A stretch of 64,000 nt of DNA from Eubacteriales bacterium. GTDB lineage: Bacteria > Bacillota > Clostridia > Oscillospirales > CAG-382. Numbering within the stretch: the first letter of the stretch is position 1; every line of letters starts with the position of its first letter. The notes beneath the pieces were generated by a model. That model saw only the letters and a program-made list of their open reading frames with translations. It made no database searches and was not told the origin of the DNA. Shown here piece by piece: positions 9,098-57,583 of this stretch. The translations under genes and the position numbers were made by a program. The stretch lies in the NCBI GenBank assembly GCA_045580005.1, contig JAZNMZ010000009.1:21154-85153 (forward strand), written 5' to 3'.

Positions 9098-10660
9098 TCA
9101 GTGAAGCAAAATAAACCTTTTTCCATCAAAAGTTTCGCCGGTTACATTGTTGTCACTCTTAAGACGCGAGCAAGAAACATGGTGAGCTTTTGCAACATTC
9201 CAAACACTCTCACCTGCTACAGGATAATATATTGTAAAGCCTTTTGTGCGTACACTATCGTTTTGCGTGCTGAGCCTTTCGTAACCCGTCACAACCTCAT
9301 GCGTTTCCTCAGATATTACAGCACATCGCTCATGTATATTTATCTTAAGCACAAGCTCGCCACCATACAGCTCGCATTCGTAAGAATCAACAAACGACGC
9401 GTTTATAAATCTGTATTTCTGGGGGTCCCCTGTGATTAGATTTGAAAGATTCGAAGTCGGAATATGTATATTGATAGGTATCTGAACAGCCTCTATCTCG
9501 CCGTTTTCTTTTACCCCTATCACGCAAAGAGTTCCGCGCGCGCCAAACGACAGCCTGTCATCGTAGTTCTCGGGATTGGATAGCGAAAGTCTCAGATTTG
9601 ACAAAACAACAGAAGTTATACCTTTCAGGTCTGTTCTCAGATGTTCTTCAGCGTTAATATTTTCTTCATATATATTTACAAAAGTGCTGACACGGATTTT
9701 TTTCTTTTCTATCTTCATATGGCAGTTTGTAGAATAAGCGTCAACATTAAGCAGTTTTTCGCAGTTTTTTAAGCCGTATATAACGAAATTTATGCCTGCA
9801 TTTAGCGAAATGAGTCTATTTTCACCATAATTGTCCGACATAACCTCGGTGCCTACTCCTGTTATATCTGCACAGGCTACTGCTTGCCATTCCGGGTCAA
9901 TTTCAAAAATATCGTACTCAGACTTGAAAGGTACTGACTTTTTAAATGAGACATATTCCTCATTGTCATCGGAGACTGCTCTGTACAAACACGAAAAATC
10001 AACATTTGCTGCCACAGTCACACAGCCGTCGTTTACCGATACCTCGCCGACAGAAACACCGATGTCTGCATTGATAATTTCATCAATCTCAGGCATTCCG
10101 TCATCGAGTCTGATTTCCTCAGAAAGACTTTTTTGATTGTCTTCCGAAAGAATCATATGAGTAGCCAACACACTCTTTTCAAGGTATTCCACATCACAAT
10201 CTTCGTTTTGCGTACACTGATCCTCGCCGCTGCTTTCTACAGATAGTTTTATCACATCGCAGCATACAGATATCTTTGACTTTGCTGTCACTCTCCGTTG
10301 GTTATGCATCCTCGATGAAGAGTGTCCCACAAACACATTTACAACAGGGCGCAGGTCCTGTTCATCAACCGACTCTCCGGACGATATATTGAAGCTCTGG
10401 TTGAATTCGCCTGAAAATACTGCGCTTTTGAGTTTATTTTTAAAGTCTGAAACATACAAAACACTGTATACAACCTCGCCGTCAACATATACTGTGCCGT
10501 TTTCTATTGATTTGCTTTTAATTTTTGCTTTTGCGTCAGTCTTTACTATTCTTGATATGTTTGGCAGATATTCCGGAAGAGTGTAATCTGTTTCATTTTC
10601 TTTTTCTGTCTTTTCAAAGAACACTCTTTCATACGCCGGAGACATACAGTAATTTTCCAT
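9098..10660 (-). CDS. DUF3794-like protein with C-terminal LysM-like domain (SipL/SpoVID-like spore morphogenesis candidate)
   Basis: C-terminus TIYYPVAGESVWNVAKAHHVSCSRLKSDNNV fits the LysM pattern. The long repeat-like body is typical of DUF3794. Start set at MENYCMS (10660), with AAGGAG 9 nt upstream. Confidence 0.55.
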   Translation of the reverse strand: MENYCMSPAYERVFFEKTEKENETDYTLPEYLPNISRIVKTDAKAKIKSKSIENGTVYVDGEVVYSVLYVSDFKNKLKSAVFSGEFNQSFNISSGESVDEQDLRPVVNVFVGHSSSRMHNQRRVTAKSKISVCCDVIKLSVESSGEDQCTQNEDCDVEYLEKSVLATHMILSEDNQKSLSEEIRLDDGMPEIDEIINADIGVSVGEVSVNDGCVTVAANVDFSCLYRAVSDDNEEYVSFKKSVPFKSEYDIFEIDPEWQAVACADITGVGTEVMSDNYGENRLISLNAGINFVIYGLKNCEKLLNVDAYSTNCHMKIEKKKIRVSTFVNIYEENINAEEHLRTDLKGITSVVLSNLRLSLSNPENYDDRLSFGARGTLCVIGVKENGEIEAVQIPINIHIPTSNLSNLITGDPQKYRFINASFVDSYECELYGGELVLKINIHERCAVISEETHEVVTGYERLSTQNDSVRTKGFTIYYPVAGESVWNVAKAHHVSCSRLKSDNNVTGETFDGKRFILLH

Positions 10661-10732
10661 TTTGATTTTCTCCTTTTCGATCATGTTTTCTGCTACAAGT
10701 ATATTTTGATAAAAGGAGAAATATTACAAAGA

Positions 10733-10813
10733 TTACTTACCTCTTTTTTCTTTAACAAACAGTGATAAAATTTTTCTGAGTATTCCTCCCGGTTTAAGTA
10801 CAACTATTTTCAT
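10733..10813 (-). CDS. spoVM: SpoVM-like 26-aa amphipathic peptide (absent from the ORF track, which lists nothing shorter than 60 aa)
   Basis: Hand translation gives MKIVVLKPGGILRKILSLFVKEKRGK*. AGGGG RBS upstream. Same length and MK..(I/L)K.P..GGI.R pattern as B. subtilis SpoVM, recalled from memory. Confidence 0.5.
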   Translation of the reverse strand: MKIVVLKPGGILRKILSLFVKEKRGK

Positions 10814-10837
10814 AAGTATACCCCTTTCAAAGTACTG

Positions 10838-11032
10838 TCATTTTGAAAAATACAAAAAACCTGCAAATATTAAAAGCAAAGCCTCAATACATACCAAAGC
10901 TACCGAGGGTAAGAAGCAGGAAACAAGAATTGTTACTCCCATTGCCATAATACAGATTCCTATCAGTTTAGAATTTTTTCTCATAATATCCCTCATTTGC
11001 TTTATATTTATATTTCCATTATATGACATCAA
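10838..11032 (-). CDS. small membrane protein, hypothetical
   Basis: 64-aa ORF with two hydrophobic segments. No recognisable family. Confidence 0.35.
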   Translation of the reverse strand: MMSYNGNINIKQMRDIMRKNSKLIGICIMAMGVTILVSCFLPSVALVCIEALLLIFAGFLYFSK

Positions 11033-12526: not shown

Positions 12527-13306
12527 TTGAAGAAAGCGGTAATCAGTGATATAGACGGCTCTTTAATATACAGAGGTCATCATCTGAACAAGACAAGATT
12601 TCCTCTTATGCTCAAAAAGCTGAGCGACAAAGATATTGCTTTTTGTCTTGCAACCGGCAGAACATACGGCGATGTCGCGTGTCTTTTTGGAGATCTTCTT
12701 GACGGGGTACATATTTTATGCTGTGACGGTGCGCTTAGCATCACAGGACACAAGATTGTTCATTCCTTCCCTATCAGAAGCTATTTTCTTTCCTACTTTT
12801 TTGATTTTGCAAAAAACCAAACCGACACCTATGTAAATCTTCATAAATCCTTTGCGATTGAATTTCACGGATATACGCACTCATATATTTTCACTCACAG
12901 TGCTTGTCTTTATCATAAGGAAGCTGCAAAGCTGAAAAACCTCAAGAGGATTTCTGCTCTTGAAGAAATAAAAGAAGATATATTTAAAATCAGTCTGTTT
13001 AGCAACAGCTCGATTGGTACACCTGACGGATTGCGTATTTGCTACGATAAGGGCGGTATTACCGAGTATGTACCCAAAGCTGCCACAAAGCTCTCGGCAG
13101 CAAAAGACCTGTCGGATAGACTTGGCATCCCACTTAGCTGTTTCACAGCATTCGGCGACAGCGATAACGACGCTGAGTTGCTTTGCGCCTGCGGGTGTTC
13201 ATACTCCACTTACTGCGCGCAAAAAGAAGTATTTGAGCTGACAGACCACCATACAAGAGATGTGATCGGCACAGTGATAAGACTTGCCGATGAAAAAGTA
13301 TTATAA
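12527..13306 (+). CDS. Cof-type HAD-IIB phosphatase
   Basis: Motif I SDIDGSL, ATGR, and motif IV GDSDND. TTG start at 12527 preferred, with AAGGTGGA 5 nt upstream, giving the typical (M)KKAVISDIDG N-terminus. Confidence 0.8.
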   Translation: MKKAVISDIDGSLIYRGHHLNKTRFPLMLKKLSDKDIAFCLATGRTYGDVACLFGDLLDGVHILCCDGALSITGHKIVHSFPIRSYFLSYFFDFAKNQTDTYVNLHKSFAIEFHGYTHSYIFTHSACLYHKEAAKLKNLKRISALEEIKEDIFKISLFSNSSIGTPDGLRICYDKGGITEYVPKAATKLSAAKDLSDRLGIPLSCFTAFGDSDNDAELLCACGCSYSTYCAQKEVFELTDHHTRDVIGTVIRLADEKVL

Positions 13307-13331
13307 ACAACACCACAAAAGAGGTTGTAAA

Positions 13332-15860
13332 ATGGATAAGTACACAGTAAAAGACATTCCGAAAACCGAAAGAATCTCAAGGCTGATAGATGCGCTCTAC
13401 GACCATCTCCCCGAGATTGAGGCAGACCGCGCGGTTCTTCTTACAGAATCTTATAAGATGACAGAAAACGAGCCAATTATCACACGCAGAGCAAAGGCAT
13501 TTGCGCATATTTGCGAGAATATTCCTGTCACTATCCGCGACAACGAGCTTATTGTCGGAAGTGCAACAAAGGTGCCGAGAGGCTGTCAGGTGTTCCCTGA
13601 GTTTTCGTTTGAGTGGCTTGAGTCGGAGTTTGATACAATTGAACACCGCACTGCAGATCCTTTCCATATTTCCGAACAGACCAAAGAAACACTTCACGAA
13701 GTGTACAAGTACTGGAAGGGTAAAACAACAAGTGAGCTTGCAACAGCGTATATGTCTCCCGAAACTCTCAAGGCTATCGAGCACAATATATTCACTCCCG
13801 GTAACTACTTCTATAACGGCGTAGGTCATGTTACCGTCAACTACGGTAAAATTTTAGCAAACGGACTTGACGGTATAATTGAAGAGGCAAAAAGCGCTCT
13901 TTCCGACATTAAGTTTTCTGATAGTGATTATTCAAAAAAGACTCACTTTTTAAACGCAGTTATTGAAAGCTGCAAGGCGGCAGAAACTTATGCCGCAAGA
14001 TACGCAAAACTCGCTCTTGAGCTCGCAGAAAAAGAAAAAGACCCTAAGCGCAAGGCAGAACTAATAGTTATTGCTTCTAACTGCTCTAATGTCCCTAAGA
14101 AAGGTGCTGCAAACTTCTATGAAGCGTGTCAGTCTTTCTGGTTTATACAGATGCTTCTGCAGACAGAGTCAAGCGGACATTCTATCTCGCCCGGCAGATT
14201 TGATCAGTATATGTATCCTTATTATAAAAAGGATATTGATGCAGGCAAAATAACTATGGAAGCGGCACAGGAGCTTATGGACTGTATCTGGGTTAAGCTC
14301 AATGACCTCAACAAGGCAAGAGACGCGGCAAGTGCCGAGGGATTTGCAGGTTACAGCCTTTTCCAGAATCTTATCGCAGGCGGTCAGGACGAAAACGGAC
14401 TTGACGCAACGAACGACCTATCTTTTATGTGCATACAGGCAACAAAGCATGTACTTTTGCCTCAGCCGTCTTTCTCTGTTCGTGTCTGGAACGGCACACC
14501 GCATGAATTTCTTATAAAAGCCGCAGAGCTCACACGCACTGGCGTAGGTCTTCCTGCATATTACAACGACGAAGTAATTATCCCCTCTCTTCTCAACAGA
14601 GGTCTTACTATTGAGGACGCGAGAGACTACAATATAATCGGATGTGTAGAGCCTCAGAAATCAGGCAAAACAGAGGGCTGGCATGATGCAGCGTTCTACA
14701 ATATGTGTCGACCGCTTGAGCTTGTTTTTACAGACGGGTACGATAACGGCGAGTTTATCGGAGTACATACAGGCGATGTAACAAAGTTTAAGACATTCGA
14801 TGAGTTCTATGACGCATACAAGGCGCAGAACAACTATATGCTTGGCCTTCTTGTGAATGCAGACAACGCTATCGATGTTGCGCACAGCGAGAGATGTCCC
14901 CTGCCGTTCCTTTCAGGAATGATAGAGGACTGTATAGGCAAAGGTAAGAGTGTACAGGAGGGCGGCGCTGTATATAACTTCACCGGTCCTCAGGGTTTTG
15001 GTGTTGCAAATATGGCAGACTCGCTTTATGCTGTCAAGAAGCTTGTATTTGATGAGAAAAAGATTACAATGTCAGAACTCAAGGAAGCTCTCGAACACAA
15101 CTTTGGAGAGGATATTCCCGACAGCATTGCGCAAAAGAAAACTGTAGAAGCAATAAAGAAGCTTTCGGAATCCGGAAGAGCGGTTACAAAGCTTGTCATT
15201 GAAGATACATATAAAAAAGAAAAATCTCTCGGTATGCAACAGTTCCAGAGAACAAGGTACAGAAAGATACGCGAAATGATTGAAGCTGTACCAAAGTTCG
15301 GCAACGACATCCCCGAAGTGGATGCATTTGCAAGAGATGTGGCTTATACTTATACAAGACCTCTTGAAACTTTCAAAAACCCGAGAGGTGGTATGTATCA
15401 GGCAGGACTCTACCCTGTTTCCGCAAATGTTCCTCTTGGTGCTCAGACTGGAGCCACTCCTGACGGCAGGCTTGCTTACACTCCTGTTGCAGACGGTGTA
15501 TCTCCCTCTGCTGGAAAAGACCTCAAGGGCCCTACAGCAACAGCTAATTCTGTATCAAAGCTTGACCATGGTATCGCTTCAAACGGTACATTGTTTAATA
15601 TGAAGTTCCACCCATCGGCACTTGAGGGCAGAGCTGGCCTTGAGAGCTTTGTGGCGCTTATACGAGCATACTTTGATCAGAAAGGCAGCCATGTACAATT
15701 TAATGTTGTAAGCCGTGAAACGCTTAAGGATGCTCAGCTGCACCCTGAAAACTATAAATCGCTTGTTGTGCGAGTTGCCGGATACAGCGCGCTCTTTACC
15801 ACGCTTTCAAAGTCGCTGCAGGATGACATCATCAACCGTACAGAGCAGGGCGGCTTCTGA
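13332..15860 (+). CDS. glycyl radical enzyme, B12-independent 1,2-propanediol dehydratase type
   Basis: C-terminal glycyl radical motif VVRVAGYSALF. Thiyl loop IIGCVEPQ (Cys-x-Glu). NGVGH histidine. 842 aa from the ATG at 13332, with AGAGG upstream. Counted from that start, the residues are His166, Cys438, Glu440 and Gly817. Confidence 0.9.
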   Translation: MDKYTVKDIPKTERISRLIDALYDHLPEIEADRAVLLTESYKMTENEPIITRRAKAFAHICENIPVTIRDNELIVGSATKVPRGCQVFPEFSFEWLESEFDTIEHRTADPFHISEQTKETLHEVYKYWKGKTTSELATAYMSPETLKAIEHNIFTPGNYFYNGVGHVTVNYGKILANGLDGIIEEAKSALSDIKFSDSDYSKKTHFLNAVIESCKAAETYAARYAKLALELAEKEKDPKRKAELIVIASNCSNVPKKGAANFYEACQSFWFIQMLLQTESSGHSISPGRFDQYMYPYYKKDIDAGKITMEAAQELMDCIWVKLNDLNKARDAASAEGFAGYSLFQNLIAGGQDENGLDATNDLSFMCIQATKHVLLPQPSFSVRVWNGTPHEFLIKAAELTRTGVGLPAYYNDEVIIPSLLNRGLTIEDARDYNIIGCVEPQKSGKTEGWHDAAFYNMCRPLELVFTDGYDNGEFIGVHTGDVTKFKTFDEFYDAYKAQNNYMLGLLVNADNAIDVAHSERCPLPFLSGMIEDCIGKGKSVQEGGAVYNFTGPQGFGVANMADSLYAVKKLVFDEKKITMSELKEALEHNFGEDIPDSIAQKKTVEAIKKLSESGRAVTKLVIEDTYKKEKSLGMQQFQRTRYRKIREMIEAVPKFGNDIPEVDAFARDVAYTYTRPLETFKNPRGGMYQAGLYPVSANVPLGAQTGATPDGRLAYTPVADGVSPSAGKDLKGPTATANSVSKLDHGIASNGTLFNMKFHPSALEGRAGLESFVALIRAYFDQKGSHVQFNVVSRETLKDAQLHPENYKSLVVRVAGYSALFTTLSKSLQDDIINRTEQGGF

Positions 15861-15897
15861 TTAGTTTACTTTAATAAATCTCTTACGGAGAAAAACA

Positions 15898-16689
15898 ATG
15901 ATTGAGCAATACAAAGACATAAAAGGGAGAGTCTTTGATATTCAAAGATTCTCTGTCCACGACGGACCCGGAATACGGACGATAGTATTCCTCAAGGGAT
16001 GTCGTCTTCGCTGTCGCTGGTGCTGTAATCCTGAGTCTCAGGAGTATGAAATTCAAAAGATGCTCAAAGGCGGCAAACAAGAAACCGTTGGCTACGACAC
16101 AACTGTAGGACAGGTTATGGAAGATATTCTAAAGGACGCACCATACTACAGACGCTCAGGCGGAGGTGTTACACTCTCGGGTGGTGAAGCGCTGTGTCAG
16201 CCTGATTTTGCGGTGGCTCTTCTTTCTGCTTGCAAGGAATACGGTCTGTCGACCGCTATTGAAACAACAGGCTTTGCAGACTATTCTGTGATAGAAAGAT
16301 ACATACCTGTGTGCGATCATTTTCTTATGGACATCAAACACACAAACAGCGACAAGCACAAGGAGTTCACTACACAGCCAAACGAACTTATCCTCGAGAA
16401 TGCAAAGAAGATTGCAAAAAACGCCAAGCACCTTGTGATAAGAGTACCTACCATCCCCACATTCAACGACACTGTCGAAGAAATATCCGACATTGCAAAA
16501 TTTGCGTCATCTCTTGTCAGTGTCGATGAGCTTCATCTTCTGCCATACCACAAGCTCGGTTATGACAAGTATGTGGGGCTTGGCCGGCAGTATCTTATGG
16601 GAGATCTCCCCTCGCCGGGTGCAGACAAAATGCAAGAGCTGAAAAAAGCTGCTGAAAAATACATAAACAATGTAATAATCGGCGGATAA
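15898..16689 (+). CDS. glycyl-radical enzyme activating enzyme (radical SAM)
   Basis: [13 protein letters not shown]3CX2C (CRLRCRWC) followed by CNPES, and GGE motif SGGEAL. 263 aa. Confidence 0.9.
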
Positions 16690-16717
16690 GCATCAAAAAC
16701 ACAAAGGATTGATTACG

Positions 16718-17113
16718 ATGAACAATATAGACAAGATTCTATCGCAATACAGGGGTCCTGGTGAAGACAAGCTGAGAATAATACAGGAGCTTGTTCCGGG
16801 TAAGCAGATAACACTTGCTCATATCATTGCAAACCCCAATGAGATTCTGTACCGGAAGCTCGGTCTTGATCCGTCACTTGACTACTCTCACGCCGCAATC
16901 GGAGTTATAACTATGAGTCCTAGTGAAACGGCAATTATTGCAGCTGATATAAGTATGAAAGCGTCGGGCGTTGAGCTTGGTTTTGTTGACAGATTCAGCG
17001 GTACTCTTATCATCACTGGAAGTATCTCGGATGTAGAAGCAGCATTCCGTGCTGTTCTTGAATATGCGGTAGAAAAACTCGGTTTTTCTGTATGTGAGCT
17101 TACAAGAACATAA
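16718..17113 (+). CDS. BMC shell protein, circularly permuted PduU/EutS type
   Basis: [22 protein letters not shown]-terminal region and a permuted BMC fold signature. ATG at 16718 with AAGGA upstream. Confidence 0.8.
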
Positions 17114-17116
17114 TTT

Positions 17117-17578
17117 ATGAAAAAAATTATTCTTATAGGACGCAGCGAGAGCGGTAAGACAACATTGACTCAAGCGCTCAAGGGCGAGAAGATCACATAC
17201 AATAAAACACAGTATGTAAACCACTATGATGTAATTATCGACACCCCCGGCGAATACATACAGACAAAGACGCTCGGAGGCGCGTTGGCAGTATACTCGT
17301 ATGAGGCAGATGTTGTCGGACTTCTTGTGAGTGCAACTGAGCCATTTTCACTGTTCAGTCCGAATGTAGTCAGTATGGCGACCCGCGAGGTTATCGGCAT
17401 TGTCACAAAAATTAACGACAACGGCGCAAACATTGCTCTTGCTGACAGATGGCTTGAGCTGTCTGGATGCAAAACAATTTTCCATGTAGACTCAAAGACA
17501 GGTGAAGGAATAACTGACATTCTCTCGCACCTCAAAGAGTCGGACGACGAGCCTCTCCCCTGGGAAAGCAAGTCGTAA
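17117..17578 (+). CDS. EutP/PduV family microcompartment-associated GTPase
   Basis: P-loop GRSESGKTTL, DTPGE and a size of about 150 aa. Typical of PduV/EutP. Confidence 0.85.
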   Translation: MKKIILIGRSESGKTTLTQALKGEKITYNKTQYVNHYDVIIDTPGEYIQTKTLGGALAVYSYEADVVGLLVSATEPFSLFSPNVVSMATREVIGIVTKINDNGANIALADRWLELSGCKTIFHVDSKTGEGITDILSHLKESDDEPLPWESKS

Positions 17579-17657
17579 AACATTTTCGTAAGCAAGGCGA
17601 AAGCCTACTTAAATAAAGTTACCATTTTTACTAAAATAAAGAAAAGGAGAAGAAAAA

Positions 17658-18461
17658 ATGGCATCAGAATACGCAATTAAAGTGCAGATGTGTGAAATCG
17701 GCAAGAGAATTTACGACAGAGGCATGGTTGCTTCTAACGACGGTAACATTTCTGTTAAGGTGGGCGCAGATGAATATCTTTGCACACCCACAGGTGTATC
17801 AAAGGGCTTTATGACACCCGAGTACATCTGTAAAGTAAACGGCAGAGGCGAAGTTCTTGAGGCTTATGAAGGCTTCAAACCCTCCTCAGAAATTAAAATG
17901 CATCTTCGTGTTTACAAGGAAAGACCTGATGTAAACTCTGTTGTTCATGCACACCCTATGTATGCAACAGGCTTTGCTATCGCAGGTATTCCGCTTACAG
18001 CACAGATCATGCCAGAAGCTGTTATCGCTCTCGGATGTGTTCCGATTGCTGAATACGGCACACCCTCAACTGAAGAGATTCCCGACGCAGTTTCTAAGTA
18101 TCTGCAGCACTATGACGCAGTTCTTCTTGAAAATCACGGAGCTCTCGCTTTCTCTGATTCACTTCTCAACGCATATCACAAGATGGAATCAGTTGAATTC
18201 TACGCACAGCTTATGTTCATCTCAACACTTCTCGGTGGTCCCAAGGAACTGTCACCCGAACAGGTTCAGAGACTTTACGAAATCCGCCGTCAGTTTGGTA
18301 TGAAGGGTAAGCACCCCGCTGACCTCTGTCCCAACCTCGCAGCAGGCAAGCCTGCTTGTCCTAATTGCACAGGCGACTGCGGCAGCCACACAGCAACATC
18401 AAGCGACGCCGATGTTATTTCCGAGATTACAAAGAGAGTACTTGCACAGCTCGGCAAATAA
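17658..18461 (+). CDS. class II aldolase (L-fuculose/L-rhamnulose-1-phosphate aldolase type) with C-terminal extension
   Basis: NDGNISV, SSEIKMH and VVHAHP zinc-ligand motifs. About 215-aa core plus a 53-aa tail ending in DADVISEITKRVLAQLGK. Confidence 0.85.
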   Translation: MASEYAIKVQMCEIGKRIYDRGMVASNDGNISVKVGADEYLCTPTGVSKGFMTPEYICKVNGRGEVLEAYEGFKPSSEIKMHLRVYKERPDVNSVVHAHPMYATGFAIAGIPLTAQIMPEAVIALGCVPIAEYGTPSTEEIPDAVSKYLQHYDAVLLENHGALAFSDSLLNAYHKMESVEFYAQLMFISTLLGGPKELSPEQVQRLYEIRRQFGMKGKHPADLCPNLAAGKPACPNCTGDCGSHTATSSDADVISEITKRVLAQLGK

Positions 18462-18477
18462 TTTTCGGTGACCATCT

Positions 18478-18984
18478 ATGGATAACGCTAAAATAAAAGG
18501 CATAGTAGATTCTATCTCATACGAACTGAAAAAGGAAAAGTCTACATACACGACAGACACAATTACTCTGCGTCTTGCAAAAAGGGTTGCAAAAAGAGTT
18601 GAACAAAGAGCAACTGAGCTTGGCGTCCACGCTGTTATTGCAATATGCTCGAATGCAGCAAGACCAGTTCTCGTACACTGTATGGATGACTCGTATATCG
18701 CGAGCTATGATATAGCTTTTAACAAGGCATATACATCCGCTTCGATAAAAATGTCTACAAAAGTACTCAAGGGACTGAGCCAGCCACACTCACCTCTTTA
18801 CGGCATTCAGAATACGAACGACGGAAAGATTGTGATTTTCGGCGGCGGTGAGCCCTTAGTACTTGGAGGCAAAATTATCGGTGCCCTCGGTGTCAGCGGT
18901 GGCAGCGAAGAGCAGGACACACTGCTTGCGGCATACGGAGCTTCGGTTCTCGAGGAAGAAGCTAAAGAATGCCTACAAATATAA
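18478..18984 (+). CDS. GlcG/HbpS-like DUF336 protein (PduO C-terminal domain-like)
   Basis: GGGEPLVLGGKIIGALGVSGGSEEQD signature, preceded by an extra N-terminal extension of about 25 aa. Confidence 0.8.
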   Translation: MDNAKIKGIVDSISYELKKEKSTYTTDTITLRLAKRVAKRVEQRATELGVHAVIAICSNAARPVLVHCMDDSYIASYDIAFNKAYTSASIKMSTKVLKGLSQPHSPLYGIQNTNDGKIVIFGGGEPLVLGGKIIGALGVSGGSEEQDTLLAAYGASVLEEEAKECLQI

Positions 18985-18998
18985 GATGGAGTAAAATA

Positions 18999-20222
18999 AT
19001 GGACTACAACAAGGAAAATATTGAAGAAATCGTGAAGCAGGTTCTTGCAGGCATGGTTGGCGAGGTGGCAACAGCTACCAGCGCTCCTGCCGCTCCCAGA
19101 AGAACTACTGGTGGAGCTGTTCCTTCAACAGCAAGAGTGGCTATGCTCACAGGCATCGAAAAGTTTGAGATCAAGACTTATCCTATGCCTGAAGTCGGCG
19201 ACGACGACATTCTTGTTAAGGTTGAGGGCTGCGGTATCTGCGGCACCGACGCTCACGAGTATAAGCGCGACCCGTTTGGCCTTATCCCTGTAGCACTCGG
19301 ACATGAGGGCACAGGCGAGATTGTCAAAATGGGCAAGAATGTAACAAAAGACAGTGCAGGAAAACCCCTCAAAGTCGGCGACAAGGTTGTAACCTGTATG
19401 ATATTTAAGGATAATCCAGATATCACAATGTTTGACCTTAACAAGCAGAATGTAGGCGGTGCTGATGTATACGGTCTTTTGCCTGATGACGATGTTCATC
19501 TCAACGGTTGGTTTGCCGATTACATCATTGTAAGAAAAGGCTCTACTATATTCAATGTAAGCGATCTTGACCTCGACTCAAGAATTCTTATCGAGCCCTG
19601 CGCAGTTCTTATCCACGCTGTAGAGCGTGCGAAGACAACTGGTATACTCCGCTTTAACAGCAGAGTAGTTGTACAGGGCTGCGGACCTATCGGTCTTATT
19701 TGTATCGCTGTACTTCGTACAATGGGTATCGAAAACATTGTTGCTGTTGACGGCAATGCCAAAAGACTCCAGTTTGCAAAGAGAATGGGTGCTGACCACA
19801 CAGTGAACTTTACAGAGCATAAGGGCATTGAAGCTCTTACAGATGCTGTAAAGGATGCTTTTGGCGGCTATCTTGCTGACTTTGCGTTTCAGTGTACAGG
19901 AAGCCCTGTAGCTCACGCAAACATCTATAAGTTTATCCGCAATGGCGGAGGTCTTTGCGAACTTGGCTTCTTTATCAACGGCGGCGACGCTACAATTAAC
20001 CCTCACTTTGACATCTGCTCAAAGGAAATCACAACTGTCGGCTCATGGGTATACACACTTCGTGACTACGCAACAACATTTGATTTTCTAAAAAGAGCAA
20101 TCGCTATCGGTCTTCCTATCAAAGAGCTTATCACACATAAGTATCCGCTTGACAAAATTAATGACGCGTTTATTACAAATGTCAAGATGGAAGGTCTTAA
20201 GATAGCTATAGTCAATAAATAA
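18999..20222 (+). CDS. Zn-dependent medium-chain (MDR) alcohol dehydrogenase with N-terminal encapsulation-peptide-like extension
   Basis: EGCGICGTDAHE and GHEGTGEIV zinc motifs, and the Rossmann motif VVQGCGPIGL. ATG at 18999 with GGAG upstream. The N-terminal 50 aa are a helix plus an Ala/Pro/Thr linker. Confidence 0.8.
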   Translation: MDYNKENIEEIVKQVLAGMVGEVATATSAPAAPRRTTGGAVPSTARVAMLTGIEKFEIKTYPMPEVGDDDILVKVEGCGICGTDAHEYKRDPFGLIPVALGHEGTGEIVKMGKNVTKDSAGKPLKVGDKVVTCMIFKDNPDITMFDLNKQNVGGADVYGLLPDDDVHLNGWFADYIIVRKGSTIFNVSDLDLDSRILIEPCAVLIHAVERAKTTGILRFNSRVVVQGCGPIGLICIAVLRTMGIENIVAVDGNAKRLQFAKRMGADHTVNFTEHKGIEALTDAVKDAFGGYLADFAFQCTGSPVAHANIYKFIRNGGGLCELGFFINGGDATINPHFDICSKEITTVGSWVYTLRDYATTFDFLKRAIAIGLPIKELITHKYPLDKINDAFITNVKMEGLKIAIVNK

Positions 20223-20240
20223 TCAAAGGAGTAAATGCTA

Positions 20241-20555
20241 ATGACAGAAGCAGTCGGCATTATCGAGGTTTACGGTCTTGTAGCAGCCTTTGTCGCTTGT
20301 GACGCAGGATGTAAAGCAGCGAATGTGAGAGCAGAAACCTTTGATAAAAACAAACCAAAAAAGCCTGACGAGCTCAAGGTGCCGCTTATTGTGGCTGTTA
20401 AGTTCAGAGGAAGTGTTGACGCGGTAACATCGGCTATAGATGCAGCCGAAGCTGCGGCAAACCAGGTATCAGGCGTAGTAACAAAACACATTATAGCCCG
20501 TCCCGAGAACGGCACCGAAAAGATGCTCAAGCTCTCAGGACTCGACAAAAAATAA
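20241..20555 (+). CDS. BMC-H shell protein, divergent (expanded pore loop)
   Basis: BMC domain AVGIIEVYGLVAAFVACDAGCKAANV...HIIARP. The canonical IGSG pore loop is replaced by FDKNKPKKPDELKVP. Confidence 0.75.
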   Translation: MTEAVGIIEVYGLVAAFVACDAGCKAANVRAETFDKNKPKKPDELKVPLIVAVKFRGSVDAVTSAIDAAEAAANQVSGVVTKHIIARPENGTEKMLKLSGLDKK

Positions 20556-20588
20556 TTTAAAACTTTTATTAAACGGAGGAAATTTAAA

Positions 20589-20864
20589 ATGGCACAGGAA
20601 GCATTAGGAATGGTAGAAACAAGAGGTCTTACAGCAGCTATCGAAGCAGCAGACTCTATGGTTAAGGCCGCAGAAGTAACACTTGTTGGAACAGAAAAGA
20701 TCGGTTCCGGACTCGTAAGCGTTATGGTACGCGGTGATGTTGGCGCAGTTAAGGCGGCAGTTGAGGTTGGCGGCGAGGCAGCTTCCAGACTCGGAGAGCT
20801 TGTTGCTACACATGTAATCCCCAGACCTCACGCTGATGTTGAGAAGATTCTTCCCAAGTTCTAA
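20589..20864 (+). CDS. BMC-H shell protein, canonical PduA/PduJ type
   Basis: [25 protein letters not shown]...[22 protein letters not shown]...HVIPRPH. 91 aa. Confidence 0.92.
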
Positions 20865-20894
20865 TCTAAACCAGATACATAAAGGATGAAGAAT

Positions 20895-21200
20895 ATGAAA
20901 TCTCTAGGACTCGTCGAAGTTTCCGGAGTAGTTGCCGCAGTTGACGCGCTCGATATCATGTGCAAAAGCGCGAATGTATCTTTTGTTACATGGGAACGCA
21001 AGCTCGGTGGCAGACTTGTTACAATCATTGTAACCGGAAGCGTTTCAGATGTTACCGAAGCGATTGAATGTGTAAAGCAAAATGCGTCAGTCCCCCTCTG
21101 CGCGTATGCTGTTATTGCAAATCCGCACGAGGAAACAATCCGCATAGCTGAGCTTAGCGCATCAAGAATCAAAAAAGCAGCAGACGCTGCAAAAAATTAA
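20895..21200 (+). CDS. BMC-H shell protein, divergent (KLGGRLV pore, C-terminal helix)
   Basis: SLGLVEVSGVVAAVDALDIMCKSANV...VIANPH with a C-terminal tail IRIAELSASRIKKAADAAKN. ATG at 20895 preferred, with AAGGA 8 nt upstream. Confidence 0.75.
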   Translation: MKSLGLVEVSGVVAAVDALDIMCKSANVSFVTWERKLGGRLVTIIVTGSVSDVTEAIECVKQNASVPLCAYAVIANPHEETIRIAELSASRIKKAADAAKN

Positions 21201-21217
21201 CTTAAGAGGAAAATAAC

Positions 21218-21649
21218 ATGGCTGAAAAGATTGAAAAATCCGCACCCAAGAAAAAGACAGGCGCGGTAAAGAAAACAGCTACTGTATCCCCTGCTGCAAA
21301 ACCTGTTGCAGCAAAGACAGAAACAAAAACAACAAATAATACTAAAGATAGTCTAACGGAGGTAAAAGTTATGACACAGTTAGCATTAGGCATGATCGAA
21401 ACAAGAGGACTTGTTGCAGCAGTTGAAGCAGCAGATGCTATGCTCAAGGCAGCAAATGTAGAGCTTGTTGGAACTGAAAAGATCGGTTCCGGACTCGTGA
21501 GCGTAATGGTTCGCGGCGATGTTGGCGCAGTTAAGGCAGCAGTTGAAGCTGGTGCTTCTTCTGCAGAGCGTCTCGGCGAAGTTATTGCAACTCATGTAAT
21601 CCCCAGACCTCATGCAGATGTTGAAAAGATTCTTCCCGCCCTTAAATAA
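21218..21649 (+). CDS. BMC-H shell protein, PduA/PduJ type, with a 51-aa Lys/Ala/Thr-rich N-terminal extension (alternative internal start at 21371)
   Basis: The C-terminal 92 aa are a close paralog of 20589..20864. Both the ATG at 21218 (AGAGGA upstream) and the in-frame ATG at 21371 (GGAGG 8 nt upstream) have good RBSs. Confidence 0.8.
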
Positions 21650-21709
21650 GGCGACCCTTAAATAAGAGCAATCTTATACAATAATACGAATCTTTTTAAC
21701 CTCGGTTGT

Positions 21710-21736
21710 CCTGCGAAGACCTCGCGTCTTCGCAGG
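21710..21736 (+). other. GC-rich intra-operon stem-loop (no T-run)
   Basis: CCTGCGAAGAC-CTCGC-GTCTTCGCAGG, a perfect 11-bp stem in the 164-bp gap between the shell BMC-H genes and the BMC-P gene. Confidence 0.5.
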
Positions 21737-21813
21737 GGACTCCCGAACACCTGCCGAAAAATCGGCAAAATACCAAACAGATATCTAATTGATATCGGAT
21801 TAAAGGTGAAAAT

Positions 21814-22080
21814 ATGATTATTGGAAAAATCGTCGGAAATGTAGTTTCTACAAAAAAGAACGAAAACCTAACTGGTGGAAAGTTCCTTGTTGTGGAAGTA
21901 TATTCTTCTATGGCGAACGATAAAAGAAAAATGGTGGCAGTTGACAATGTCGGAGCCGGAATGGGCGACATTGTGTTGGTAGCACAGGGCAGTGCCGCAC
22001 GACTTGCTTGTCAGGATGAAAAGCTTCCTATTGACGCAGCGGTTGTCGGTATTGTAGATACAGCCACCGGACTGGAGTAA
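21814..22080 (+). CDS. BMC-P pentameric vertex protein (EutN/PduN/CcmL family)
   Basis: MIIGKIVGNVVSTKK...GKFLVVE...AVDNVGAG.GD.VLV. 88 aa. Confidence 0.9.
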   Translation: MIIGKIVGNVVSTKKNENLTGGKFLVVEVYSSMANDKRKMVAVDNVGAGMGDIVLVAQGSAARLACQDEKLPIDAAVVGIVDTATGLE

Positions 22081-22089
22081 TATAAAGTT

Positions 22090-23418
22090 ATGGTATTAAC
22101 AGAACTTGTTGAAACAATGAAGAAAAGCGGTGTCGCCGGAGCAGGCGGAGCCGGATTTCCTTCCTATGCAAAGCTCGACAAACGAGCTGACACCATAATC
22201 CTTAACTGTGCAGAGTGTGAACCGCTCCTCAAGCTCCATAGACAGGTACTCGAGAAATACGCTTACGAAATTTTAAGCACACTTACAACTATTGCTGACG
22301 CTGTAGAGGCAGACAGTGTTATTATCGCTGTTAAGTCCTCCTACAAGGGAGCTGTTGAGGCTGTTAAAAATAACCTCAGCAAATTTCCCAAGGTATCTAT
22401 CGGACTTCTTCCCGAAATTTACCCTGCAGGAGACGAAGTTGTAACAATCTATGAAACAACAAAGAGAGTTGTCGCTCCCGGTGCACTTCCTATCACTGTC
22501 GGAGTTACAGTTTTCAATGTTGAAACAATTCTCAATGTTTATAATGCAATCAATTCTGACTCCCCTGTTACTACAAAGTATATCACAATAGCAGGTGAAG
22601 TAAAGAATCCGATTACACTCAAAGCGCCTCTCGGTATTACATATGCAGAGCTTATAGAAATGGCAGGCGGAGCAACAGTTTCCGATTATAAGCTGATCGG
22701 CGGCGGTCCTATGACAGGTCGTATTGTTTCTCCTACTGATGTAGTAACAAAGACATCAAACGCTATTCTTGTTCTCCCCTCAAATCATTCCTTGATACTC
22801 AAAAAAACATCAAAGATTCAGATTGACATGAAGAGAGCTAAAGCGGCTTGCTGCCAGTGCAGAATGTGTACTGATTTGTGCTCAAGAAACCTGCTTGGTC
22901 ATCCTATTGAGCCACACGCGTTTATGCGTTCGGTTACAACAGGAAACACACAGGATGTTGCGCCCTTTATCAACACTATGTTCTGCTCACAGTGTGGACT
23001 TTGCGAGCTTTATGCTTGTGGTCAAGGTCTCTCCCCCAGAACTCTTATAGGTGAATACAAGAACGGATTGCGCGCTGCAGGAGTAAAGCCTCCGGTTGAC
23101 GCAAAGTTTGACGAAGTTCATCCCAACAGAGAAATCAGAAGAGTTCCTATGGGCAGACTCACAGCGAGACTTGGACTTACAGCATACAACAAACCTGCTC
23201 CCCTTGTTGACGAAACAGTTAATGCAGGCAAGGTTAAGATTATGCTCTCTCAGAGCATAGGTGCTCCTGCGACCGCTATTGTCAAAAAAGGCGACAAGGT
23301 TTCAGTCGGTCAGGTTATAGGAGAGGCTGCCGAAGGCAAGCTTTCTATGCCTGTACACGCTTCAATCAACGGCAAGGTTGTTGACGCAAACGACAGATTC
23401 GTTGTAATCGAGGCATAA
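22090..23418 (+). CDS. PduS-like Fe-S flavoprotein (RnfC/51K-like NADH-binding, SLBB, 2x[4Fe-4S])
   Basis: GVAGAGGAGFPSYAKL, an SLBB-like segment, and Cys clusters CCQCRMCTDLC and CSQCGLCELYAC. Confidence 0.85.
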   Translation: MVLTELVETMKKSGVAGAGGAGFPSYAKLDKRADTIILNCAECEPLLKLHRQVLEKYAYEILSTLTTIADAVEADSVIIAVKSSYKGAVEAVKNNLSKFPKVSIGLLPEIYPAGDEVVTIYETTKRVVAPGALPITVGVTVFNVETILNVYNAINSDSPVTTKYITIAGEVKNPITLKAPLGITYAELIEMAGGATVSDYKLIGGGPMTGRIVSPTDVVTKTSNAILVLPSNHSLILKKTSKIQIDMKRAKAACCQCRMCTDLCSRNLLGHPIEPHAFMRSVTTGNTQDVAPFINTMFCSQCGLCELYACGQGLSPRTLIGEYKNGLRAAGVKPPVDAKFDEVHPNREIRRVPMGRLTARLGLTAYNKPAPLVDETVNAGKVKIMLSQSIGAPATAIVKKGDKVSVGQVIGEAAEGKLSMPVHASINGKVVDANDRFVVIEA

Positions 23419-23483
23419 AGCAATTACATGGTTTTACCCCATAAAAACCCAGCCGAATAAAGATATATGGGGAGAAAGGATGT

Positions 23484-23509
23484 TTTTCATCAAAGATTTT
23501 TGATGAAAA
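23484..23509 (+). other. AT-rich hairpin in the pduS-pduT intergenic gap
   Basis: TTTTCATCAAA-GATT-TTTGATGAAAA, a perfect 11-bp stem. Confidence 0.35.
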
Positions 23510-23525
23510 CTCACGGTTATTATCA

Positions 23526-24074
23526 ATGAGTAAAGCAATCGGAATGGTTGAACTTCAGACAGTGTCCGCAGGCATTACCAGCGCGGATCTGATGCTTAAG
23601 ACCGCAGAGGTCGAAGTGATTGAAAGTCAGCCTGTATGTCCGGGAAAATACATAGTTCTTATCAGTGGCGATCTCAGCGCTGTTAAGGCGGCTGTGGACT
23701 CAGCTAAGGCAAAGGTCGGAGCGAAGCTTGTAGGAAGCTTTGTTCTCGGCAATCCTCATGAGTCTATTTTCCCTGCTCTTTATGGCGCAACTCAGGTAGA
23801 AGATGTAAAAGCTCTCGGTGTTCTTGAAACATTCTCGGCAGCTGATATTATCACTGCAGCTGACGCAGCAGCAAAGACATCTTTGGTTGACCTTATCGAG
23901 CTTCGTGTCGCCAGAGGTTTGGGCGGCAAATCCTATATGCTTATCACGGGCGATGTAGCAGCGGTTACAGCAGCTATCGAAAAGGCGCAGACAGAAGTGT
24001 CCGAAAACGGTATGCTTCTTGACAGCTCAATTATTGCAAATCCTGATAAGCGCCTTTGGGAAAATATCCTTTAA
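23526..24074 (+). CDS. BMC-T tandem-domain shell protein, PduT type
   Basis: Two BMC domains in 182 aa. PVCPGKY places a Cys at the position of the PduT pore [4Fe-4S] ligand. Confidence 0.85.
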   Translation: MSKAIGMVELQTVSAGITSADLMLKTAEVEVIESQPVCPGKYIVLISGDLSAVKAAVDSAKAKVGAKLVGSFVLGNPHESIFPALYGATQVEDVKALGVLETFSAADIITAADAAAKTSLVDLIELRVARGLGGKSYMLITGDVAAVTAAIEKAQTEVSENGMLLDSSIIANPDKRLWENIL

Positions 24075-24092
24075 TTTCTGAAAGGAATAAAA

Positions 24093-25235
24093 ATGAACAC
24101 ATTCAGACTATCTACTCAGGTCTGTTTTGACGAGAATGCACTCGATATTCTTTCTCAATACAAGAACTTGAATGCCGTTATTTTTACAGACGCCTTTATG
24201 GTAAAGTCAGGTGCTGCTGATAGAATAGCAAAGAAGCTTTCTGGCTGCTCAAGTGTAAAAATTTTTGGTGAAGTTATGCCTGACCCACCTATCGAGCTTG
24301 TAGTCAAGGGACTCAGATTTCTCCTTGATGCAAATGCTGATATCATAGTAGCTCTCGGAGGCGGCTCATCAATTGATGCTGCCAAAGCGGTACTTCTAAT
24401 GGCAAAAAGTTCAGGTAAAAAGCAGAATATCAAACTTGTGGCAATACCGACAACAAGCGGTACAGGCTCTGAGGTTACTCAGTTCTCTGTTATTACAGAT
24501 AAGCAGGCAGGTGTCAAGTATCCTCTTGTACATGAGGCTTTACAGCCGGATGTTGCGATTCTTGACGCAGAGCTTGTGCGCACCGCTCCCCCGTCGGTAA
24601 CTGCAGATACAGGATTTGATGTTATCACACACGCTCTTGAGGCATATATTTCTACAAAAGCAAACGAATTCTCTGACGCTCTTGCGGAAAAAGCTCTTGA
24701 GCTTGCCTTTGAATATCTGCCGCAGGCATACAAGGACGGCAATGATCTTGTTGCAAGAGAAAAAATGCATAAAGCCTCTTGCCTTGCAGGAATGGCATTT
24801 AACACCGTAAGTCTTGGGGTCAATCACGGTATTGCTCACGCGCTCGGTGCGAAGTTCCATATTCCTCACGGAAGAGCAAATGCAATGCTCCTGCCGCATG
24901 TTATGAAGTTCAACGCTGACCTGTCAAACAACTTTGACACAGCTGAATACACTGTAACTGCAAAGAAGCTGGCTAAAATAGCAAAAATCATTGGACTCAA
25001 TGCAACAAACACGCATTTTGCTGTCGTATCTCTTATAAAGCATATTCAGAGCTTGGAAAAAATATCAGGCATTCCCTCTACCCTTGCCGAAGCAAAGGTA
25101 TCAAAAGAGGATTATCTCGCTCAAAAGGATTCTATTATTAACAGTGCCCTTAACGATGCATGTACCGCGACCAATCCTCGCGAGATGACAGCACAGGGTG
25201 TTGAAAGTATCTTAAATTGTATTGCAACTTATTAA
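24093..25235 (+). CDS. iron-containing alcohol dehydrogenase (FucO/PduQ/EutG family)
   Basis: GGGSSIDAAK, PTTSGTGSEVT, TGFDVITHALEAY and HGIAHALG...HG metal-ligand histidines. 380 aa. Confidence 0.85.
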   Translation: MNTFRLSTQVCFDENALDILSQYKNLNAVIFTDAFMVKSGAADRIAKKLSGCSSVKIFGEVMPDPPIELVVKGLRFLLDANADIIVALGGGSSIDAAKAVLLMAKSSGKKQNIKLVAIPTTSGTGSEVTQFSVITDKQAGVKYPLVHEALQPDVAILDAELVRTAPPSVTADTGFDVITHALEAYISTKANEFSDALAEKALELAFEYLPQAYKDGNDLVAREKMHKASCLAGMAFNTVSLGVNHGIAHALGAKFHIPHGRANAMLLPHVMKFNADLSNNFDTAEYTVTAKKLAKIAKIIGLNATNTHFAVVSLIKHIQSLEKISGIPSTLAEAKVSKEDYLAQKDSIINSALNDACTATNPREMTAQGVESILNCIATY

Positions 25236-54792: not shown

Positions 54793-56049
54793 TTATCTCT
54801 TAATGAGAACATCTCTTTCGTATGCACGAACACTATCAAGCCACTTTTCGCGTGTGGGAACTCCCATTGTTTCGCAATAGTAATCCCAAACAGCGCCGAA
54901 CGGATATGACTTATATTCTTCTGTAAGAGCAAGTCTTGTTGTATAGTCGAACTCATACTCAGCCTTCTTGAGAAGGTCGATAGGCTCAAGCATAGCTTTG
55001 AGGAGCGCTTTCTGAGTGTTTCTTGAACCAATTACCCATGCAGCAACACGGTTAATACTTGCGTCAAAGAAGTCAAGAGCGATATTTACGCGGTTTTCAA
55101 AATTGTTGCGGATGATTTCCTGACCGATAGCCATAAGCTCGTCGTCGAGAATAACAACATGGTCGCTGTCCCAACGCATAGGACGAGAAACATGGAGAAG
55201 TATTTCATCAGCGAAAAGAAGCATAGAAGAAATTTTATTCGAGATAACTTCTGTAGGATGGAAGTGTCCTGCGTCAAGACATACCATAACATCGGGATTC
55301 TTCATTCCATATCCCATATAAAACTCGTGAGAACCCACTGTGAATGCTTCTACACCTACTGCGAACACCTTTGATTCAACTGCGTCCTTTGTGTATTTAG
55401 GATCGAGCTTCTTAGCTTCAATCTTGTTGAGCGAGTCGAGAAGTCTTGCGCGGGGAGCTACCTTGTCAAAGCAGTTGTCCTTGTATCCGTCAGGAACCCA
55501 GATGTTGTTCACAGAACGCACACCTGTACGCTTGCCGAGATACTCGGAAACCTCACGGCTGCGGATGCAGTGGTCAATCCAGAACTGACGAATTCCCTCA
55601 TCGGGATGAGAAAGTGTGAGGCCGTCAGAGCTCTTTGGATGGGAGAAGCATGTGGGATTGAAGTCAAGACCGATTTTCTGATCAACAGCCCAATCTGCCC
55701 AGTTAGAGAAGCACTCGGGTGTGATAGAATCCCTGTCGGCCTTGAGACTCTTAGGTTCGCTATAGAAAGCATGAATATTAGCTTTCTTGGGACCGGGGAT
55801 AAGAGAGAAAGCAAAACTCATATCAGCTCTGAGCTGATCGGGAGTCTTAGCTGCTCCGGGATAGTTACCTGTTACCGCAAGGCCGCCGTCGAGAGAACCG
55901 TCAAGATTTTCAAATCCTCTTACATCGTCGCCCTGCCAGCAGTGGATAGAAATCGGAATTTCCTTGAGTCTTGCGATTGCCGCATCAGTGTCTACGCCAA
56001 TCTGTGCGTACTGCTCACGCGCAAGCTCGTATGATTTTTCAATAGACAT
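54793..56049 (-). CDS. rhaA: L-rhamnose isomerase
   Basis: Collinear with E. coli RhaA as recalled: HCWQGDDV.GFE, GNYPG, LDAGHFHPTE, VSRP.RWDSDHVV and DFFDASINR.AAWVIG.RN. Confidence 0.95.
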   Translation of the reverse strand: MSIEKSYELAREQYAQIGVDTDAAIARLKEIPISIHCWQGDDVRGFENLDGSLDGGLAVTGNYPGAAKTPDQLRADMSFAFSLIPGPKKANIHAFYSEPKSLKADRDSITPECFSNWADWAVDQKIGLDFNPTCFSHPKSSDGLTLSHPDEGIRQFWIDHCIRSREVSEYLGKRTGVRSVNNIWVPDGYKDNCFDKVAPRARLLDSLNKIEAKKLDPKYTKDAVESKVFAVGVEAFTVGSHEFYMGYGMKNPDVMVCLDAGHFHPTEVISNKISSMLLFADEILLHVSRPMRWDSDHVVILDDELMAIGQEIIRNNFENRVNIALDFFDASINRVAAWVIGSRNTQKALLKAMLEPIDLLKKAEYEFDYTTRLALTEEYKSYPFGAVWDYYCETMGVPTREKWLDSVRAYERDVLIKR

Positions 56050-56070
56050 TCTTTTTCTCCTTTTTATGTA

Positions 56071-57555: not shown

Positions 57556-57583
57556 AGGAAACACCTCCTCATTTATGTTCTGT

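Follow-up and report, generated by a model that had tools for sequence, protein, structure and literature searches.

Why should a gene for an ordinary microcompartment shell protein carry a second ribosome-binding site and a second in-frame start codon inside its own coding sequence? The question arises in a 64,000-nucleotide stretch of contig JAZNMZ010000009.1 from a Eubacteriales bacterium (the window), where an operon for a bacterial microcompartment (BMC) of the glycyl-radical type GRM5 includes a gene for a hexamer-forming shell protein, BMC-H, that begins with a lysine-rich extension of 51 codons. We consider it probable that this gene encodes a basal facet hexamer in two versions, with and without a disordered tail, and that the tails form a brush on the outside of the compartment. 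The arrangement would be a new variant that joins two known themes, extended BMC-H proteins and dual-start shell genes, and it is conserved across gut and soil Clostridia. We found no description of a dual-start BMC-H gene or of this family of tails in the open-access literature, and searches there turned up no report of the two polypeptides.

An earlier note on this DNA, made from the letters alone, had placed the start of the open reading frame (ORF) at 21218, behind an AGAGGA ribosome-binding site, and had pointed to a second in-frame ATG at 21371 with GGAGG 8 nt upstream that opens a 92-residue shell domain. Both assignments are exact to the base, and the full ORF encodes 143 amino acids. 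Its first ATG lies 17 nt 3′ of the stop codon of the preceding shell gene (TAA 21198-21200). Predicted pairing with the anti-Shine-Dalgarno sequence is −5.9 kcal/mol at the upstream site and −10.8 kcal/mol at the embedded one, and the mRNA is predicted to be unstructured around both starts and is A-rich at the internal site.

Downstream of the tail, residues 56-131 match the Pfam BMC domain PF00936 over all of its profile (positions 1-75 of 75, E 1.3e-30). The protein has a single non-permuted copy of this domain, colinear in alignment with the chains of PduA and EutM. Residues 52-141 align end to end with PduA, EutM and HO-5815 (3NGK, 3I6P and 5DJB/5V74; E 1e-30 to 1e-36), including the signatures KAAN (residues 77-80) and PRPH (residues 129-132), both of which are invariant across 28 homologs. 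By these alignments the folded part qualifies as a genuine BMC-H protein of the basal type. Unlike the window protein, PduA, EutM and HO-5815 have no N-terminal extension; among the homologs compared from the Protein Data Bank, coverage is confined to residues 52-141 and no chain covers residues 1-51.

The extension is widespread. When the best 120 homologs were drawn from a collection of 5.8 billion proteins, almost all proved to be 130-200 amino acids long, that is, extended. A locus scan limited to one genome per species returned 80 loci, and in about 40 of them the gene is extended in frame at its N-terminal end by 27-96 codons that begin with ATG. Carriers include Lachnospiraceae, Oscillospiraceae, Acutalibacteraceae, Anaerotaenia, Mobilisporobacter, Dorea, Faecalimonas and others, and the nearest locus in the scan belongs to a metagenome-assembled genome of a Eubacteriales bacterium (L001). 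The tailed gene is syntenic, following a zinc-type alcohol dehydrogenase and shell genes and preceding either the pentamer gene BMC-P or a gap large enough for PduL and then BMC-P. Its first ATG sits 4-90 nt past the upstream gene, and the ORF spans the entire gap. The earlier note had proposed a search for similar extensions on BMC-H proteins of related genomes, and the same architecture is found in about 40 other genomes; in about 40 species the upstream region is open, ATG-started, preceded by a Shine-Dalgarno (SD) site and codon-periodic. The note had named, as one way to refute its reading, an upstream region that relatives do not keep as coding sequence, and these genomes show the opposite.

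Tail sequences cannot be aligned between homologs, while their composition is constant. They nonetheless show the marks of translation. Thymine accounts for 3% of first codon positions but 18% of third positions (chi2 1109), and the SD site of the upstream start has a family median duplex energy of −7.5 kcal/mol against a background of −1.9 kcal/mol. Most tails (33 of 40) open with the residues MA, 19 of them with MAE, and the usual start is MAE(E)KK. The shell genes of these loci fall into two paralog types, named after the motifs KAAEV (A-type) and KAANV (B-type), and extensions occur on 41 of 93 B-type genes and on none of 42 A-type genes (Fisher 8e-9, a value that, like the other Fisher p-values given here, overstates the evidence, since the 40 loci are related by descent and BMC loci are subject to horizontal transfer). 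A joint probability of 1e-57 that all frames are open was not relied on, because the loci had been chosen for being open. Codon periodicity, upstream SD strength, the MA starts and the restriction to B-type genes together exclude chance open frames, and the tail is almost certainly coding sequence.

The embedded start site is marked by conservation of a different kind. Ahead of the folded domain, an alignment of 28 homologs has just three invariant columns, Met1, Glu48 and Met52. At the nucleotide level, 38 of the 40 extended loci carry the pattern xxG-GAG-Gxx (for example AAG GAG GAA, ACG GAG GTA or CCG GAG GTA) with constant spacing to the internal ATG. Codon −5 may specify K, T, P, Q, M or R, yet it ends in G in 38 of 40 cases. 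Where it specifies lysine, AAG is used in 31 of 33 cases, compared with 104 of 319 lysine codons (33%) elsewhere in the tails (Fisher 3e-12); glutamate at codon −4 is GAG in 37 of 38 cases, compared with 49 of 175 (28%) elsewhere (Fisher 2e-16). The median duplex energy of the internal site is −11.2 kcal/mol, alongside −10.2 kcal/mol for free-standing BMC-H genes and the weaker upstream median given above. Synonymous sites that are fixed amid a hypervariable tail imply a constraint on the nucleotides, and the motif is that of an SD site. The embedded SD site and ATG, to judge by this codon pattern, is a unit under selection, and it shows clearly how an SD motif can be preserved within coding sequence.

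Our first scan had demanded a methionine before the ALG motif, which is circular with respect to retention of that methionine, and was repeated without the demand. In the unbiased scan the internal methionine is kept in 42 of 44 extended genes, in 39 of them at exactly the same position. Moreover, several GRM5-like loci have a tail-less ortholog that begins at exactly this methionine with the same SD site, so the short protein should work as a shell subunit by itself. One tail-less ortholog (L020) is preceded at 10317-10343 by the 8-codon stretch MNFKEEIT-M with the motif AAG GAG GAA, which looks like the vestige of a former tail that was truncated. Taken together, these observations make it very likely that both the 143-residue and the 92-residue products are made.

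As the earlier note had described, residues 1-51 of the window protein are rich in Lys, Ala, Thr and Pro and devoid of aromatic residues; Glu is also frequent, cysteine is absent as well, and the net charge is +7. Across the family the tails average 21% Lys, 18% Ala, 13% Glu, 12% Thr and 7% Pro with close to no aromatics. Net charge ranges from 0 to +10, with the positive charge mostly in the N-terminal half. The term polycationic, used before, was therefore too strong, given 13% Glu and several tails with charges of 0 to +3; the tail is a net-basic polyampholyte. APKK or PAKK motifs occur in several homologs, there is no regular repeat, and the window copy has no regular PAKKA repeats. AlphaFold2 (AF2) assigns residues 1-40 of the window protein a predicted local distance difference test (pLDDT) score below 50, so the tail is predicted to be disordered. 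The AF2 monomer model was used only for this low confidence over residues 1-40, being too poor for fold searches. The first 20 tail residues include almost no hydrophobic positions. An encapsulation peptide was considered for the tail and rejected, there being no amphipathic helix and no AF2 helix in residues 1-40.

These features suggest a simple history and mechanism. The basal facet hexamer of GRM5 compartments would have gained a disordered N-terminal tail, and the ribosome-binding site and start codon that it had before would have been retained within the longer frame. Ribosomes that initiate at ATG 21218, with its weaker SD site, would make the 143-residue tailed subunit, and those that initiate at ATG 21371, with its strong GGAGG, would make the plain 92-residue subunit. 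One gene would in this way provide, for one and the same tile position, tailed and untailed subunits in a fixed proportion. From the SD strengths the plain subunit is likely to be the more abundant, although coupling with translation of the upstream gene and occlusion by ribosomes make the actual isoform ratio unpredictable. The tails would then form a flexible brush, sparse and net-positive, on the side of the organelle that faces the cytoplasm. We hold this explanation as a whole to be probably correct.

The closest precedent for the coding strategy is PduB/PduB′ of the Salmonella Pdu compartment, in which two in-frame starts, each with its own ribosome-binding site, yield a long and a short protein, and in which the N-terminal peptide has a function apart from tiling (PMC9132943). 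The tailed gene resembles it in having two in-frame starts, each with an SD site, although dual initiation has been demonstrated for PduB and is predicted here. The likeness is one of mechanism rather than of family, since PduB is a BMC-T trimer of permuted tandem domains and the tailed protein a canonical single-domain BMC-H. The peptides differ as well: that of PduB is a conserved, structured segment of 37 residues that binds the lumenal core, whereas the tails comprise 27-96 hypervariable, disordered residues that are expected on the outer face. Our findings would extend the PduB/PduB′ principle, in which translation initiation sets an isoform ratio, from BMC-T proteins to the bulk BMC-H subunit.

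An outward tail is expected because the N-terminus of a canonical BMC-H protein lies on the concave face, which is directed outward in solved shells. In PduA the N-terminus belongs to the concave face, and recombinant shells turn this face to the cytoplasm, with some ambiguity for native BMCs (PMC6109187), and in GRM2 shells it is the convex side that faces the lumen (PMC6971018). The earlier note had given this topology, and the literature agrees with it for recombinant shells while leaving a residual ambiguity for native ones. It is thus probable, by analogy with those structures, that the tail points away from the compartment.

If both forms are made and the tail is instead inside the compartment, it might serve as a linker between shell and core or as a cargo scaffold that promotes condensation, much as the N-terminal 37 residues of PduB do. 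That peptide is the sole shell N-terminal segment with a proven start-site-dependent role, and its binding partner is the core (PMC9132943). In native BMCs, according to some data, concave faces may touch lumen enzymes, and the cargo of this locus has segments resembling encapsulation peptides, for example at the N-terminus of the zinc-type alcohol dehydrogenase. However, the N-terminus of a non-permuted BMC-H is on the concave face, and this face is external in every solved shell cited. The tails also include no amphipathic helix or conserved motif able to dock cargo, and their length of 27-96 residues or more and unconstrained sequence are quite unlike the well-conserved PduB segment. A lumenal tail is accordingly improbable in our estimation.

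Only the long form might matter, with the embedded SD site and ATG as an ancestral leftover, or with the residues K-E-E-K-K-M kept as protein sequence at the junction; the short isoform would then not be produced in any meaningful quantity. The junction residues are indeed conserved at the protein level as well, ribosomes elongating on the long ORF could occlude internal initiation, and two extended genes that are presumably functional (L045 and L069) lack the internal methionine and SD site. Against this, the amino acid at codon −5 changes while its third base stays G, Lys and Glu at these two positions are written almost exclusively with their rarer G-ending codons, and a mere leftover should have been lost from tails whose remaining sequence cannot be aligned. 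L045 is itself instructive. Its extended gene (9968-10339) reads through the junction as ...SEKE-ALG..., and directly downstream of this long-only gene are two tandem short B-type copies (10381-10659 and 10704-10982). The loss of the internal start is offset by separate short genes, and each of the two forms now appears to have genes of its own, as expected if both are needed. The long-only gene of L069 is in a different type of locus. We therefore regard a role for the long form alone as quite unlikely.

That translation yields the short form alone, with the 153 nt before it as an A-rich, unstructured leader that is open by chance and with an ORF over-extended by gene callers, might be argued from the far stronger internal SD site of the window (−10.8 versus −5.9 kcal/mol), from the tail-less orthologs and from the many over-called N-terminal extensions of BMC-H proteins in databases (P0151, P0159, P0187 and P0217), but it is highly improbable in view of the three-base periodicity, in which T fills 3% of first codon positions, the usual MA(E/D) start, an upstream SD site of −7.5 against −1.9 kcal/mol in the background, an ORF that fills the gap to the upstream gene, a composition that is consistent across families, the confinement of tails to one paralog type, and the existence of L045 and L069, whose genes can be made only as long forms.

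The suggestion in the earlier note that one ORF yields two isoforms is borne out at the level of sequence, with an SD site and ATG fixed at synonymous positions, tail-less orthologs that start there and the division of labor in L045. Several observations nevertheless weigh against a dual-start hexamer with an outward brush. Kinship and horizontal transfer among the 40 loci inflate the Fisher p-values. A substantial minority of the retrieved GRM5-like loci have no tail, which means that the tail is dispensable for building a shell. Five loci (L025, L031, L032, L035 and L063) have an additional short B-type copy although their internal start is intact; together with the two long-only genes, they indicate that the dual start is neither strictly necessary nor universal. 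The orientation of native metabolosome shells has been questioned (PMC6109187). The AF2 model of the folded domain is mediocre, with a mean pLDDT of 63 for the full-length protein and the first strand of the domain modelled as a helix. Finally, many tails have a modest net charge (0 to +4) and acidic residues are common, which weakens any simple model of DNA binding.

What might a brush of outward tails do? The most likely role of the tails in the proposed dual-start shell would be to control how compartments interact with their surroundings. Because length and sequence are free to vary while composition and net positive charge are kept, an entropic or electrostatic tail is favored over a docking peptide. 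The tails may stop compartments from sticking together or from stacking concave face to concave face, or they may loosely tether compartments to polyanions such as the nucleoid, so that compartments are dispersed and inherited. A function in spacing or tethering, drawn by analogy, is a tentative suggestion that may well prove wrong.

Terminal extensions are also known from other BMC-H proteins. PduK is a tail-bearing BMC-H whose loss leads to polar aggregation of otherwise well-formed compartments, and EutK carries a nucleic-acid-binding domain. Like the tailed protein, both join a canonical BMC-H domain to a non-shell extension at a terminus on the concave face. Their extensions differ in being C-terminal, with a Cys motif in PduK and a folded helix-turn-helix in EutK, and each is a single isoform from a dedicated gene for a minor shell protein.

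A likeness of composition is found in PhaM of Cupriavidus necator, in which the lysines of PAKKA sequences attach polyhydroxybutyrate granules to the nucleoid and ensure their partition (PMC9049629). PhaM and histone-H1-like proteins share with the tails a low-complexity character rich in Lys, Ala and Pro, and in PhaM this segment is on a protein of the organelle surface. There is no homology between PhaM and the GRM5 tails, which have a lower charge density, with 13% Glu and 12% Thr, and for which DNA binding is only putative. In its most far-reaching form the proposal is that the ratio of the two starts sets the density of a brush that binds the nucleoid or other polyanions, giving the GRM5 compartments of gut and soil Clostridia a built-in, partner-free means of positioning and protection from aggregation. 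As part of the same proposal, which is speculative and rather unlikely to hold in full, the brush would serve in place of the McdAB system of carboxysomes and of PduK or PduV.

The spacing and inheritance of metabolosomes are poorly understood outside carboxysomes, and decoration of the outer surface of shells is almost uncharted. The gene would offer a genetically simple handle on both, with one gene and two starts, in which point mutations could remove or fix the tail.

One published protein very likely belongs to the same architecture. For Cphy_1182 of Clostridium (Lachnoclostridium) phytofermentans, a table footnote records that only residues 73-161 are homologous to PduA (Petit et al. 2013, PMC3557285), which implies an N-terminal extension of 72 residues. 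Fucose or rhamnose induces its gene 47- to 74-fold (PMC3557285). The two genes, compared by published residue numbers, share the GRM5 locus type and the PduA-like shell domain. In the open-access literature we found no analysis of the nature or conservation of the Cphy_1182 extension or of a second start within it.

Disordered N-terminal tails were also seen on other BMC-H proteins in a library of 50% representatives (P0143, P0176, P0182 and P0200). The tail of P0143 consists of about 170 residues of EPKVE-like repeats, that of P0200 is very basic, and one very basic tail of this group, rich in KSK and KKR, is on a different BMC-H lineage. All four proteins keep a methionine at the canonical start, and the phenomenon may extend beyond GRM5. 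Databases commonly hold BMC-H proteins with N-terminal extensions. Those in this library were not counted, because many are mis-called ORFs, especially in high-GC lineages. For shell engineering, the tailed gene suggests that extensions of 30 to about 100 or more residues (possibly about 170) are tolerated on the predicted outward-facing N-terminus of a facet hexamer when it is diluted with untailed subunits.

The A-type paralog of the window shares 79% protein and 78% DNA identity with the domain of the tailed gene, and the two have an exact run of 23 nt in common, GAAAAGATCGGTTCCGGACTCGT (positions 20694 and 21476). The earlier note had called them close paralogs with shared identical runs. 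They are not a recent duplicate: A and B form an ancient, conserved pair that is present together in 42 genomes, which speaks against recent duplication as the source of the shared run. The fraction of identical codons between A and B is 0.67 within a genome and 0.47 between genomes (the window and 42 other loci). Codon bias could explain this excess within genomes, and so could gene conversion that still takes place between A and B.

Table 1. Coordinates of the tailed shell gene, its parts and its surroundings, in window positions.
Feature	Position	Strand	Basis or remark
Predicted long-isoform ORF, 143 aa: disordered tail and canonical BMC-H domain of the KAANV/PRPH basal facet type	21218..21649	+	Pfam, homologs
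Upstream Shine-Dalgarno site AGAGGA, moderate strength	21205..21210	+	7 nt 5′ of ATG 21218
Tail-coding segment, 51 codons, begins MAEK	21218..21370	+	Composition, AF2, codon periodicity, syntenic conservation
Embedded Shine-Dalgarno site GGAGG within codons ACG-GAG-GTA (T47-E48-V49)	21358..21362	+	8 nt 5′ of in-frame ATG 21371
Predicted short-isoform ORF, 92 aa, plain PduA/EutM-like BMC-H from Met52	21371..21649	+	Tail-less orthologs, PDB alignments
A-type (KAAEV) BMC-H paralog, never extended	20589..20864	+	Co-occurs with B-type in 42 genomes
GRM5-type microcompartment operon	13284..25235	+	Pfam and NCBIfam scans, synteny
Glycyl radical enzyme: PFL-like (PF02901) and Gly_radical (PF01228)	13284-15860	+	Domain scan
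Activase, 263 aa: Radical_SAM/Fer4_12, no PF00037 match (ferredoxin insert absent)	15898-16689	+	Domain scan
Class II aldolase, Aldolase_II PF00596	17658-18461	+	Pfam
Zinc-type alcohol dehydrogenase (Zn-ADH), lactaldehyde reductase type, ADH_N and ADH_zinc_N (PF08240/PF00107)	18969-20222	+	Pfam
BMC-P	21814-22080	+	Pfam
PduS-like, RnfC/Complex1_51K-like	22090-23418	+	Pfam
BMC-T, tandem BMC protein (PduT homolog)	23526-24074	+	Pfam
11-bp GC-rich hairpin CCTGCGAAGAC-CTCGC-GTCTTCGCAGG, no T-tract	21710..21736	+	In the 164-nt gap 21650-21813 between tailed gene and BMC-P
L-rhamnose isomerase (RhaA, E 1e-202) and FGGY sugar kinase	54793-57564	-	Profile match

The host operon (Table 1) runs from a glycyl radical enzyme and its activase through a EutS-like shell protein, EutP, a class II aldolase and a GlcG-like protein to the Zn-ADH, and then through three BMC-H genes, the tailed BMC-H gene, BMC-P, a PduS-like flavoprotein and BMC-T to an iron-type alcohol dehydrogenase. 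GRM5, the fucose/rhamnose glycyl-radical microcompartment, is defined by a glycyl radical enzyme, an aldolase (PF00596), a lactaldehyde reductase (PF00107/PF08240) and PduS/PduT (Ferlez 2019, PMC6325248). The window locus has a glycyl radical enzyme, an activase without the ferredoxin insert, an aldolase, a zinc reductase and homologs of PduS and PduT. Compartments of this type serve abundant gut commensals that ferment fucose and rhamnose, among them Dorea, Blautia, Faecalimonas and other Lachnospiraceae and Oscillospiraceae.

The Zn-ADH probably starts at 18999, since the start at 18969 given in the ORF list overlaps the upstream gene. Its N-terminus reads MDYNKENIEEIVKQVLAGMVG followed by a linker rich in Ala, Pro and Thr, and it looks like an encapsulation peptide.

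Neither an acylating aldehyde dehydrogenase nor a PduL phosphotransacylase was found in the ORFs scanned, which were those of the locus and ten large ones from other parts of the window. C. phytofermentans, by contrast, has genes for this metabolosome core (Cphy_1178/1183, PduP/PduL-like) that are without counterparts in the scanned ORFs. In Lachnospiraceae a PduL-sized gap of 760-840 nt separates the tailed gene from BMC-P, and it is absent from the window and from L001, L002 and L014. The window locus looks like a reduced, alcohol-only variant of GRM5.

The gap between the tailed gene and BMC-P in the window folds with a minimum free energy of −52 kcal/mol, compared with −29.8 kcal/mol for shuffled sequences (z −5.9), and holds no terminator-like site. 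The hairpin found there may be an mRNA stabilizer or a partial attenuator that sets the ratio of hexamers to pentamers, and its membership in the dual-start feature is uncertain.

The genes for L-rhamnose isomerase and the FGGY kinase are 30 kb from the microcompartment locus, an observation that is consistent with rhamnose as a substrate.

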